Below are positions 18,794 through 25,504 of a DNA stretch of 46,330 nucleotides, piece after piece. Under the pieces are notes generated by a model, which saw only the letters and a list, made by a program, of their open reading frames with translations, did no database searches and was not told where the DNA came from. Within the stretch, counting starts at the first letter, position 1. Every line of letters starts with the position of its first letter. This DNA comes from a virus: the IMG/VR virus record IMGVR_UViG_3300038316_000169, one strand, 5' to 3'. Position numbers and translations under genes: made by a program.

Positions 18794-19192
18794 ATGAAAA
18801 TTGCAGCAAAAATTCTACTGGTGCTACTCATGGCATCTATTATTTTACCTGGATTTGCATCAGCAGCTGAGCCCGGCGCGATTCCGGAAATAGGCAATAT
18901 CACTGGACCATCTACTACCACAGATGTTACGGGGGGGCTTGGGATATTTTCAAAACTTGGACAATTCTTAATGGATTATTCAATCCATATCGCGGTATTC
19001 GTAATGGTGCTAGCTATAGTGATATTGTCAGCAAGGGGTTCGTGGGCTCGCAGTAATCAGCGCTCGGAAGAAGCGTCTGAGAGTAGGTCAAATACGAAAG
19101 GGCTAATCATAGACGGTGTAATGACAATGGCAGCCTTGATGTTCGTATTTTTTATTTTGGCACCGTTTGTGAAGAGTTTCATTCCGGCGTGA
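18794..19192 (+). CDS. VirB2/TrbC-like pilin
   Basis: Signal peptide plus two hydrophobic helices separated by a short charged loop; first gene of a VirB4 operon. Confidence 0.65.
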   Translation: MKIAAKILLVLLMASIILPGFASAAEPGAIPEIGNITGPSTTTDVTGGLGIFSKLGQFLMDYSIHIAVFVMVLAIVILSARGSWARSNQRSEEASESRSNTKGLIIDGVMTMAALMFVFFILAPFVKSFIPA

Positions 19193-19204
19193 TGAGGTAA
19201 GAAC

Positions 19205-19408
19205 ATGAACGAATTTCAAAGAGAAGACATGATAAAAAGCGTTTCAGGCACCGTAGAAAGAAACTACTGTGCGATAAAACGTGAAGAATTGTTTGAAAAG
19301 TATAAAAACACCGATCAAGAAACGATGAAAAGTGTTATAGAGACTATGAAAAGACGAGGAATCTTGAGATACGACCAAAAAAACGACAAATACCGACTGG
19401 TGCTATAA
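19205..19408 (+). CDS. Small winged-helix-like protein
   Basis: 67 aa; IETMKRRGILRYD..DKYRLV wing motif. Confidence 0.5.
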   Translation: MNEFQREDMIKSVSGTVERNYCAIKREELFEKYKNTDQETMKSVIETMKRRGILRYDQKNDKYRLVL

Positions 19409-21954: not shown

Positions 21955-22946
21955 CCAACGAAACACCATATTCACAAGCAAGACCACCAAAAACAATCAC
22001 AAGAATAAAATCAGACAGGTTCTTAGACCTTACCAACCTCCATACATGGATACTGTTCGCAGCAACAGCCGCATGTATGTATCTCTTCAGGGAGATGTCA
22101 AACAGTATAATAGTTGTACTAACAGCAACCAGAAATATGACACCAGAAGAACTGATAACAGATGCTTACATGAACATTCTTATGTATGCTTCAATGCTCG
22201 TTTTAGTCGTGTTTTTCTGGTTGAAATATTTTAGAAACGATGATCTCGTGGAATACCAGAAAGACCGGACAGTGTTTTTCATCCAGGGTCTACGCGGGAA
22301 GCATGTAATCAATACAATGGCTGAATCAATGGAGAACCTGTTAAAACTCGTTTCTATCGTGGGAATCCATGACAGCACAGACGGGATAAAGGAAACTAAA
22401 GCCCCAAAAGGTGTTATAATTGAATTTGGTCCTCATATCTCATTTATCCAGAGATTGAAAATCTTCTTCAGGCTCGAAAAGAAGAAGCTGAATGAATATG
22501 GGGTACTGATTGAAACATTCCCGCCCAGGCTCTCAGATGAATTCCGAGAGTTTCACGAGATGGTACTCCAAAAGGTTGTAAACGGGCTTCCGGTTAACAC
22601 GTTATTTGAAAATATATCCTGCTCTGTGATGGAGCCCAAAAAGCAGGTTTTAGAGTATCTGCTCTCACTAATGAACACCTCAAAGGGGGATGCAAGCGAC
22701 AAACATCTTGCAGACATGTATCTCAAGATTTCTACTGATAACGAACTTGTAATAAAATGGCGGTATTATTCCTTCATTTCATTGGGAGAGCGTAAAAATA
22801 TAGCCGCCGCTAGGGTACAGTATGGGGCAATAATCCCAGGGCTCATATCAAGTATGAAAGGTGCTTCTCTGTGCCCGGTAGTGCTCAGAGATCAACAGTC
22901 TGTAATTGAAGCTTATAAAATTATGTTAGGGGAGGTAGACGCATGA
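21951..22946 (+). CDS. VirB3/PrgI-like membrane protein with soluble C-terminal domain
   Basis: Two N-terminal TM helices; directly upstream of VirB4 with ATGA overlaps. Confidence 0.5.
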   Translation: MTNETPYSQARPPKTITRIKSDRFLDLTNLHTWILFAATAACMYLFREMSNSIIVVLTATRNMTPEELITDAYMNILMYASMLVLVVFFWLKYFRNDDLVEYQKDRTVFFIQGLRGKHVINTMAESMENLLKLVSIVGIHDSTDGIKETKAPKGVIIEFGPHISFIQRLKIFFRLEKKKLNEYGVLIETFPPRLSDEFREFHEMVLQKVVNGLPVNTLFENISCSVMEPKKQVLEYLLSLMNTSKGDASDKHLADMYLKISTDNELVIKWRYYSFISLGERKNIAAARVQYGAIIPGLISSMKGASLCPVVLRDQQSVIEAYKIMLGEVDA

Positions 22947-25504
22947 TAATTACAAAAGTTAAAAACTTCAAGAAAGGTGTTAAGAAGAGATGGAACGATG
23001 CTGGACACTACGCAGATAATCAGGCATGGTCTAGGTCGTATGCAAGAAAGATTCTTCCAAGCAGGATTGAGGTTTTTGATACAAACCTCATATTTAATCA
23101 GAGGTCCGTAGTCAGGACTCTTGTATGTGGGCTTCCTACAGATACCGGATCGGAGGGCTACCCGCGAGACTTCAGCAGCAAAACAATAGAACAGATCCAG
23201 AACCTAGCGTTTGATGGTGTTAGGGTCCTGATATCTACGGGCCTTATTCAGTTACCGGGAGTCCATACAAAAGAGACACTTGAGCAGGCACATTTCGATG
23301 CAGGGGTTAGGCGACATCAAAACGCCAACGATGGGACTGGAAAAGACGAGCTTGAGCTGATGATGAAAAATCAGGATATCATTCAAAACTATTCTGAGAT
23401 TTATCTCAAGTCTCAGAAGGCTTTTCATGCGTCCTTTGTTGTGGTTCTGCGCGGGCCCGCTGACTTAGTATTCGAGGCTGAGAGCAAGCTGATAAACATT
23501 ATCAGAGGGGAAAATATAGAGGTTACTATTCCTAGCAGGCTTCAGCTTGAGATGTTGCAGACGGCTCTACCGGGGCCAGATACACATCCTCGTTCATGGG
23601 TTGAAGTTCGTTCAGATGGGGCGGCGATCTTATCCAGCGCAACGAATCTGAACAGCCGGACGGATGAAACGGGGATGTATTTTGGAAAGGATATGCTTAC
23701 CAATAACGAAGTATTTTACGATCCAGACAGGCTTGCAGCCAAAACACTGGCTATGTGTGGAGCTACAGGGTCCGGTAAAACATATGCTTATCTGCTGCTT
23801 CTCATGCGGTTGAAGACTCTGAGAGATGCCAGGATAATATATACAACTCCAAAAGCCGATGAAGGAACTAATTATAGGTCTGTGGCGGCTGCCTTTGGAG
23901 ACAATGGCTGTATAGCTGATATAGGTATCAACGGATCGGAATATTTCAACCCTCTTGATATCTTGATTGACCTTGAAAGTATGGGCTTGAATAAGGAAGA
24001 ATTGAAGGGAGCCAGAAAACATATTTTTGAAAATTTATATGATCTGAAAAAGGGGACACTAATAAACGCTCACCGTATCTGGTTAGCCTCTGAGTTTTCC
24101 TCGAATATGGCGAGTTATCTTGACGAGTCACTTGATTATGTGTATGAACAGGCTGGTATTTACAGGGATGATCCGGACAGTTTCACTAATCCAATGCCTG
24201 TATACCCGGCACTTCGGTTTAAGTGGGAGCTTGATAAAGAGAATAAAAACCTTGGAACTAAGCAAAAGACAGCAGAGGCGCTCTACAATAAAACATATCA
24301 GTTCTCCTCAACAGGGCTGTTTAACAGGTACTGTAATCAGACCAAAGGACTGGATCTCAATAAAGACTTCATTATAATAGATATGGCAAACGTCCCAGAC
24401 GAGATTAAAACGTTTATGTCAGTCATTGTAAACGGGGCTATAGCTTCCAGGTTCAGCACTCACAACGAAAGAGAGACCTATCTAGCGATTGATGAAGGCG
24501 GGGTCTACCTTCGGGATAAGCTATTAAGAGAACAGATGCTACAGAGGCTCACGCAGGGTAGGAGTCATAAGTTTTACCAGTGGATTGCAACACATCAGCC
24601 GTCAGACTTCTCAAAGAATGGTGTAGGCGAAGACTTCAGAACAAACACGTATATAAACATTTTAATGGGTAATAATATTAAAAAGTCACTAAATGACGTC
24701 AAAGATTATTTCGAACTCACCGAGAGTGAATGTGGAATCCTGTCAAACTGTCAGGTCGGGCAGGGTCTCTTACTCTTCGGAGATAATGACGATGAAAGAG
24801 TTCCTATCTTTTTTGAGTCCACCGAATGGGAGCACAAAACCATAAAAGGAATAGGATATGAGGACAATAAAACAGTTACTGATAGTGGTTTAACATTTAA
24901 GCGGGAATTTAAGCACCTGATAGCAGACCATAAGATAATACTTTCCGACTGGTTTGAGGGCGACGCATCCGTATTATTGCAACAGGGCTATGAAAAACAT
25001 CCACTTACCAGAGTTGAAAAAAGAGGAACGGTAGCTGGTTTTATGCCGAAAGGATCTGTCAGAAATGGACGGGTAATATTACCGCATTTGGGGGACATGA
25101 AACTAGATCACTTCGCTTCGGTCCTCCAGCTTGAGCCAGTAATGCAGGCTGAAAATTTCGAGGAAATTGCGATAAATCATAATGGGGATGTGGATATTAA
25201 GGGAATGAAAAACGGGAAATGGCTTGGCCTGGAATACGAAATAAAAGGCTCCCATACTACAGAAGAACTGATCGCAAAGAAGGCAGCCGCACTCGGAAAA
25301 GGTATGGTGGTGCGGTTTATTTGCAGTTCTGCGGATTACCCCTTTATCTCAAAAGCGGTAGGGGAAGATTACACGCTTCAAAGAGGGTCAGCCGTTGCTG
25401 ATTTCTTAAAGAATTTTGCGGCGGAAGAAGAGAACGGCGAAGAAGAACCAGATATTCAGGTTCCTGCTGAATCTGGACTGATTACTGATGAATTGGAGGC
25501 TTAA
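22943..25504 (+). CDS. virB4: VirB4-like secretion ATPase with an extra C-terminal domain
   Basis: Walker A GATGSGKT (23759-23782), Walker B LAIDEG, QGRS...IATHQPSDF and GQGLL motifs; long VirB4-type N-terminus. Confidence 0.85.
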   Translation: MIITKVKNFKKGVKKRWNDAGHYADNQAWSRSYARKILPSRIEVFDTNLIFNQRSVVRTLVCGLPTDTGSEGYPRDFSSKTIEQIQNLAFDGVRVLISTGLIQLPGVHTKETLEQAHFDAGVRRHQNANDGTGKDELELMMKNQDIIQNYSEIYLKSQKAFHASFVVVLRGPADLVFEAESKLINIIRGENIEVTIPSRLQLEMLQTALPGPDTHPRSWVEVRSDGAAILSSATNLNSRTDETGMYFGKDMLTNNEVFYDPDRLAAKTLAMCGATGSGKTYAYLLLLMRLKTLRDARIIYTTPKADEGTNYRSVAAAFGDNGCIADIGINGSEYFNPLDILIDLESMGLNKEELKGARKHIFENLYDLKKGTLINAHRIWLASEFSSNMASYLDESLDYVYEQAGIYRDDPDSFTNPMPVYPALRFKWELDKENKNLGTKQKTAEALYNKTYQFSSTGLFNRYCNQTKGLDLNKDFIIIDMANVPDEIKTFMSVIVNGAIASRFSTHNERETYLAIDEGGVYLRDKLLREQMLQRLTQGRSHKFYQWIATHQPSDFSKNGVGEDFRTNTYINILMGNNIKKSLNDVKDYFELTESECGILSNCQVGQGLLLFGDNDDERVPIFFESTEWEHKTIKGIGYEDNKTVTDSGLTFKREFKHLIADHKIILSDWFEGDASVLLQQGYEKHPLTRVEKRGTVAGFMPKGSVRNGRVILPHLGDMKLDHFASVLQLEPVMQAENFEEIAINHNGDVDIKGMKNGKWLGLEYEIKGSHTTEELIAKKAAALGKGMVVRFICSSADYPFISKAVGEDYTLQRGSAVADFLKNFAAEEENGEEEPDIQVPAESGLITDELEA

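Follow-up and report, generated by a model that had tools for sequence, protein, structure and literature searches.

A putative minimal conjugation-type module with a VirB4-nuclease-fold fusion in tailed viruses of Methanosarcinales

What would a tailed virus do with an operon that encodes parts of a conjugation machine? The question is raised by the IMG/VR virus record IMGVR_UViG_3300038316_000169, a stretch of 46,330 nucleotides (hereafter the window), in which six co-oriented genes occupy positions 18794-25504 of the + strand, between the gpF and scaffold genes; their open reading frames (ORFs) are separated by gaps of 0-12 nt or overlap by 1-4 nt. The initial annotation described there an operon for a pilin-like, a polytopic, a two-transmembrane and a VirB4-type protein. 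Its coordinates, the tight coupling of the genes and the VirB4 assignment were confirmed, but two genes (67 and 476 aa) and the C-terminal domain of VirB4 had been left out. The answer to which we give somewhat better than even chances is that this module is a minimal export machine of the conjugation type, complete in itself, that tailed viruses of Methanosarcinales carry as an optional cargo and in which a VirB4-nuclease replaces both the coupling protein and the relaxase.

The VirB4 ATPase (853 aa, 22943-25504, +) has an N-terminal domain and intact Walker A (aa 273-280) and Walker B (D517/E518) motifs, as VirB4 proteins of type IV secretion systems (T4SSs) do, and the Walker motifs are invariant in 33 homologues. 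It matches the CD1110-type VirB4 model NF045971 (E 7.5e-23) and the profile of 4AG5, the VirB4 of T. pseudethanolicus (E 5e-27). Its AlphaFold model superposes on 4AG5 (Z 36.2, root-mean-square deviation 3.5, 354 aa) and aligns to TrwK of R388 across aa 36-644. The protein encoded just upstream (331 aa, 21951-22946, +) has an N-terminal hydrophobic region followed by a large soluble domain and is PrgI/TcpE (VirB3)-like: its N-terminus aligns with PrgI of S. suis (hhalign E 7.6e-4), a part further along aligns with the N-terminus of a CD1110-type VirB4 (hhalign E 0.002), and 6 of 17 homologues show a weak TcpE match. In several relatives, the PrgI-like protein is naturally fused to VirB4. The possibility that the 331-aa protein is a paralogue of its own VirB4 was rejected on comparison. 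The polytopic protein (371 aa, 20839-21954, +), with a signal peptide and about five hydrophobic segments, is VirB6/TrbL-like. Its top ESM Atlas clusters are TrbL_4/TrbL_5 (score 0.92, about 204 of 256 features shared, 10/10 in agreement), and one homologue weakly matches Pfam TrbL (E 0.013), the curated cut-off never being reached.

The first gene of the operon encodes a protein of 132 aa (18794-19192, +) that, by hydropathy, has a signal peptide ending in AxA and two hydrophobic helices. This architecture is that of VirB2 and TedC; 10 homologues were aligned, and the position of the gene is kept in divergent modules. Since no profile of Pfam or PDB matches it and hhalign to Maff2 gives no support either, it is a candidate pilin by architecture and position. 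Thus, the profile and structure searches bore out the VirB4, VirB6-like and VirB3-like assignments, while the pilin stands without profile support. The second gene (67 aa, 19205-19408, +) encodes a winged-helix-like protein with weak matches to MksE (E 6e-4) and HTH_56 (E 0.03); it is restricted to the closer module clade (homologues in L002, L004, L009, L017, L019 and L020) and could be a DNA-binding helper. The third gene encodes a surface protein (476 aa, 19409-20839, +) with a signal peptide, a right-handed beta-helix (PF13229, E 4.7e-6; PF12708, E 2.3e-6) and a C-terminal membrane anchor, the hydropathy peaks lying at residues 5-23 and 445-463. A counterpart adjoins nearly every module examined, and the protein is a candidate adhesin for cell contact.

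The C-terminal part of VirB4 (aa 648-828, 24884-25426, +) carries a domain that appears to belong to the PD-(D/E)xK (restriction-endonuclease-like) superfamily, as judged from its core fold and from conserved acidic residues and a lysine. Folded separately, it gives a model with a pLDDT of 94, which VIA-align places near VC1899 (Z 9.1), Can2 (Z 8.7) and Hjc (Z 8.2). The top Foldseek rows are nearly all PD-(D/E)xK nucleases, none reaching E<=0.001. Among the structural neighbours are the defence nucleases Can2, DdmD and Cdn1. MOBC structures are absent from the fold matches, although this leaves room for kinship. At the sequence level, the domain has no Pfam or PDB match and no Atlas match above 0.8. 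The residues are strongly conserved among 132 long homologues (H723 in 132, D751 in 131, E764 in 127, E766 in 121, K779 in 128), H746 being a further residue noted in the domain. MOBC relaxases show the same D...E-x-E...K pattern. A search of 1.84 billion representatives retrieved 189 proteins with the domain, and all the long ones examined are VirB4-like. On this structural basis, the domain may take the place of a relaxase.

The initial annotation had pointed out that neither VirD4 nor a relaxase is visible in the window. Indeed, none of the window ORFs matches a relaxase or VirD4 family, and Walker-A-like strings other than those of VirB4 and of the large terminase subunit (TerL) are confined to short open frames and to the portal and tail-fibre-like frames. 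As the window covers only part of a virus genome and includes neither host genes nor a replication module, this absence was tested again on complete relatives, where it holds. In 10 records, including three that are at least 90% complete, there is one DUF87-type ATPase per record, VirB4 itself. The coupling-protein models TraG-D_C and T4SS-DNA_transf match nothing but the VirB4 frame in the genomes tested; the relaxase models PF13814 (Replic_Relax) and PF03432 (MOBP) match nothing there, and no MOB family was found among the 69 other ORFs of three complete viruses. In the genomes tested, the module thus comes without a second HerA/VirD4-type ATPase and without a Pfam relaxase, and it has neither the separate VirD4/TcpA nor the relaxase of a known MOB family that characterize canonical conjugative elements.

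The module is not peculiar to one virus. It is present in six viral records that are at least 90% complete (G003, G007, G009, G013, G018 and G019), the carriers having unrelated capsid, terminase and tail types, and complete viruses retrieved through their capsid protein alone carry it in 3/3 cases. Co-occurrence with virion genes, proposed earlier as a check, was therefore found, and the possibility that related viruses never carry the operon fell. Between the window and its close relative G001, the ratio of nonsynonymous to synonymous substitutions (dN/dS) is 0-0.10 for all six genes, and the operon is under purifying selection. In G013, the capsid protein is 82% identical to that of the window, whereas the module, in the same gpF-scaffold slot, is barely alignable; there, the module has been replaced and not lost. 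A normal integrative and conjugative element (ICE) landing in a dead provirus is rejected because of this selection, the six near-complete carriers, the single ATPase and the lack of matches to relaxase models; the virion genes of the window are intact as well.

The module is nevertheless accessory, and its universality in this virus group was also rejected, since related integrated proviruses are devoid of it. Among 177 Methanosarcinaceae genomes, a related capsid gene occurs in 22 and the nuclease domain in 13, the two overlapping in 1. The gpF-scaffold slot of eight related proviral regions lacks the module, and integrase genes are found in three of these regions. A tyrosine integrase is encoded by just one of the six complete carriers, G003, and a small resolvase by G018. 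This suggests a link between the module and an extrachromosomal life of the prophage, although the module-less comparison set was drawn from chromosomes and is biased towards integrated elements. Most carrier viruses are probably maintained as prophages in the manner of plasmids. Searches of GenBank phages and of PLSDB plasmids yielded only distant and partial VirB4 matches, and a single-sequence scan of genome contigs gave no match.

Outside viruses, the module was found in two other settings. An order-wide search detected the PrgI-like gene in 24/284 genomes. Seven genomes outside Methanosarcinaceae carry a four-gene cassette encoding a pilin, a surface protein, a VirB6-like protein and a PrgI-VirB4-nuclease fusion of 1071-1077 aa with intact Walker motifs (G297:C10:122900-135500 (L135/L136), G257:C27, G258:C58, G259:C8, G260:C86, G255:C38 and G278:C248). 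The cassettes lie at several chromosomal sites, no virion genes being present over the 20-33 kb inspected. Four of them have a prim-pol gene alongside, and two, which share one site, a tyrosine integrase. From their gene content, they look like integrative elements of 13-15 kb and are a candidate family of minimal archaeal ICEs. A capsid-less 21-kb record with terminal repeats, a primase and a polymerase, which may be a fragment, also carries the module. The second setting is that of stand-alone intact copies among housekeeping genes of Methanosarcinaceae (G143:C6:3081-10086, G175:C19:12294-19173, G162:C163:249-6991 and L013:4914-12073), whose dN/dS is 0.03-0.14 at a dS of about 1.5-3. These copies nest among viral ones, with support of 97-98 in the SH-like approximate likelihood ratio test (SH-aLRT) and p 6e-5 in the approximately unbiased (AU) test, in quick trees supported by SH-aLRT only, from which long branches were excluded, the AU-tested group having been named after the first tree. 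Because of this nesting, they are taken as derived; the tree rejects the capture of a host system by viruses in Methanosarcinaceae and points to virus-to-host domestication. They are candidates for a domesticated Ced-like system in this family.

How could such a module work? From its parts, we infer the contact, the direction, the substrate and the catalysis as follows. The beta-helix protein and the pilin-like protein would make contact with a neighbouring cell, and the VirB6-like and PrgI-like proteins would form the membrane channel. VirB4 would power the assembly and, because no second ATPase was found, would double as the DNA motor. The fused PD-(D/E)xK domain could then cut the DNA of the element at the channel, as a stand-in for the relaxase, in the manner of the MOBC relaxases, which are enzymes of the same fold; for archaeal conjugative plasmids, no relaxase is known (PMC12857230). 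The virus would thereby spread both as virions and from cell to cell without lysis.

The three functions first envisaged for the locus (transfer channel, import or exclusion) do share a sound premise, a T4SS-derived module in virion-forming viruses with no recognisable coupling protein or relaxase, but they are not equal options. Self-export is favoured over Ced-like import or exclusion because the capsid-less elements show no transfer machine other than this cassette. If the module instead let the host take up DNA of its neighbours, as repair templates, recombination partners or nutrient, with the nuclease trimming or degrading what enters, small capsid-less integrative elements would gain little from it and would have no other visible route of spread. 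We regard such import as unlikely, although a pilin/VirB6/VirB4 minimal set without VirD4 is also that of Ced and Ted (PMC9905601), and the pairing of a motor and a nuclease recalls HerA-NurA. The stand-alone chromosomal copies, which are under selection, speak for import too, three of them adjoining pst/phoU (phosphate uptake) or alkaline phosphatase genes; yet their place within the viral clade makes them derived, and the CedB model covers only about 65 residues. The phosphate-gene neighbourhood may be a mere insertion site. Relaxase-less T4SS cores are often exapted for secretion (PMC12857230), so that the operon might export proteins for contact-dependent interference, delivering effectors against uninfected cells or rival elements, or might exclude superinfecting or entering DNA, the nuclease destroying it at the membrane. 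The defence nucleases among the structural neighbours of the domain and the host-benefit cargo held by the gpF-scaffold slot in other proviruses fit this. The absence of any conserved effector or immunity gene alongside the module makes it quite doubtful in our eyes, as does the fact that exclusion could be achieved without a pilin, adhesin and ATP-driven channel. Finally, a mini-ICE or transfer cassette could have entered the viral cargo slot repeatedly as a hitch-hiker, its coupling protein or relaxase being supplied in trans. Related free-standing integrative elements exist, modules have been swapped between viruses and many related proviruses are without one. This account seems improbable, since the module of the window, like that of most carriers, is not flanked by an integrase, a prim-pol or an att site, every gene of the operon is under selection, and deep viral clades carry the module.

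Several points weigh against export by the VirB4-nuclease. The archaeal conjugative plasmids known so far need VirB4 and VirD4 (PMC12857230), and the known VirB2/VirB6/VirB4 system without VirD4 whose direction has been tested, Ced, imports DNA (PMC9905601). A search for an origin of transfer (oriT) by blastn among six viruses showed no conservation of the DNA upstream of the operon and gave no candidate. The C-terminal domain matches neither Replic_Relax nor any other Pfam family, for which reason it was not filed as MOBC, and it reaches modest Z scores. DNA processing could instead fall to an ERCC4-domain protein that the capsid-less elements encode, and the att sites of these elements were searched for and not found. 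The stand-alone copies are selected with nothing obvious to export, and the integrase comparison suffers from the sampling bias mentioned above.

Beyond export itself, a wider proposal is conceivable, to which we give rather less than even chances: these would be viruses with two modes of transmission, whose one-ATPase VirB4-nuclease machine unites mating-pair ATPase, coupling protein and relaxase, also drives the smallest archaeal ICEs and has been domesticated into Methanosarcinaceae chromosomes. Conjugation and virion packaging are treated as alternative routes. Moreover, for relaxase-free DNA processing in archaeal conjugation, the VirB4-fused nuclease is a concrete candidate. If true, the proposal would account for viral spread among methanogens living in aggregates within a matrix, turn six genes into a means of delivering DNA to methanogens and set a recent example, from virus to host, beside the domestication of T4SSs that has been proposed for Ced/Ted. 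No description of this module, or of a tailed virus of archaea that brings its own mating channel, was found in the literature, a prior mention being possible in the methanogen virus compendium (Nat Microbiol 2023), Francia 2013 or Catchpole 2023, and no phage record matches.

The virus that surrounds the operon is a tailed one, in agreement with the head-tail gene set first described. Upstream on the + strand lies the packaging/head module (5873-13217), with terS, terL (6408-7832), the portal gene (8625-9863) and gpF (12330-13217). Downstream on the same strand lies the capsid/tail module (31525-45763), with the scaffold (31525), the major capsid (33073-33948), the neck, the tail tube (35954), the tape measure (37447-40566) and a tail protein (41969-45763). 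All of these genes, from the terminase, portal and gpF to the scaffold, HK97-like major capsid, neck, tail tube and tape measure, are intact, as in Caudoviricetes. TerL shares 69% identity with its counterpart from a provirus that lies in a Methanosarcinaceae chromosome of 5.75 Mb, and a 56%-identical VirB4 is located on a contig of a Methanosarcina metagenome-assembled genome (MAG). The host is a methanogen of the Methanosarcinales, probably of the genetically tractable genus Methanosarcina, as far as such sequence likeness tells. Module contigs L016 and L018 are binned in bacterial MAGs (Proteiniphilum, Fermentimonas); their VirB4 is 88% identical to that of the window, which suggests mis-binning and not bacterial hosts. 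A complete 56-kb virus with terminal repeats (L049, also G013; IMGVR_UViG_2667528052_000001), apparently an isolate assembly, could become a laboratory model; it encodes Cdc6 and RecT, has a short tail region and lacks an integrase.

Other features of the window deserve mention. Its positions 1-114 resemble 11825-11925. Here 77 bases at the very start, and 30 more past a short insert, duplicate the end of the gene 11617-11895, as the result either of duplication within the locality or of an artefact of assembly where the contig begins. Insertion sequences (ISs) are numerous, with at least four IS605-type TnpB genes and one IS200 TnpA (579-1079, 4320-5447, 13251-14348 on the - strand, 28909-29364 and 30218-31381) and repeated IS ends at 1684, 4242, 5438, 12118, 16306, 26898 and 29959. 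All are intergenic and several are missing from G001; this load suggests long residence inside cells. A 498-aa protein (10025-11521) has an Mtd_N domain and a C-terminus like the lectin-fold targets of diversity-generating retroelements, and the window contains neither a template repeat nor a reverse transcriptase. Transcribed away from the operon, a gene on the - strand (17302-18213) encodes a secreted 303-aa protein, a possible exclusion or accessory factor, whose homologues adjoin modules in L003, L004, L020, L059 and G013. A DUF2227 membrane protein (16594-16938, -) is likewise encoded near the module in many carriers. In the related record G002, four adjacent genes (47261-49415) resemble a queuosine/7-deazaguanine synthesis cluster, judging from their sequence starts alone.

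Among known systems, the initial annotation had likened the operon to Ced and Ted. The likeness holds for a pilin-like protein, a VirB6-like protein and a VirB4 without VirD4, but by gene order and homology the nearest relatives are found elsewhere, in the Gram-positive MPF_FATA core (Maff2 - CD1112 TrbL/VirB6 - PrgI - CD1110 VirB4; S. suis plasmid NZ_CP135064.1), and orthology to CedB fails (NF041017, 34 bits against a cut-off of 700, in the Walker A region alone). The module shares with this core the gene order and the homology of the VirB6-like, PrgI-like and VirB4 proteins. In contrast to MPF_FATA systems, it lacks VirD4 (CD1115), a cell-wall hydrolase and a relaxase, and adds the beta-helix surface protein, the VirB4-nuclease-fold fusion and carriage by tailed viruses. 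Like the module, Ced (in Sulfolobales and Aeropyrum) and Ted (in Thermoproteales) consist of a pilin, VirB6 and one VirB4 with neither VirD4 nor relaxase (PMC9905601). TedC of Ted is also a pilin with a signal peptide, and domesticated chromosomal copies exist for the module too. However, Ced and Ted are cellular systems, whereas the module is mobile in viruses and small integrative elements, only derived copies being chromosomal, and it has in addition a PrgI-like gene, an adhesin gene and a fused nuclease domain.

The conjugative elements of archaea, both plasmids and ICEs (pNOB8, pT33-3, thaumarchaeal ICEs), resemble the module in being driven by VirB4 without a recognisable relaxase; unlike it, they encode both VirB4 and VirD4, and none is reported as a virion-forming virus (PMC12857230, PMC6563490). 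The MOBC relaxases TraX of pAD1 and MobC of CloDF13 have the PD-(D/E)xK fold in common with the VirB4 domain, and TraX has a winged helix-turn-helix (PMC12857230), recalling the small winged-helix-like gene of the operon. By contrast, the module's domain forms one protein with VirB4 and does not stand free, and it has no PF13814 match, nicking being only proposed here. Phage-plasmids such as P1 and N15 are, as the carrier viruses probably are, tailed viruses kept as extrachromosomal prophages; the transfer described for them is by virions only, without a mating channel of their own (PMC12282955). Compared in this way by sequence and gene order, the module appears as a stripped MPF_FATA-type system, similar to Ced and Ted in the absence of VirD4, and as a member of neither the canonical conjugative elements nor Ced/Ted.

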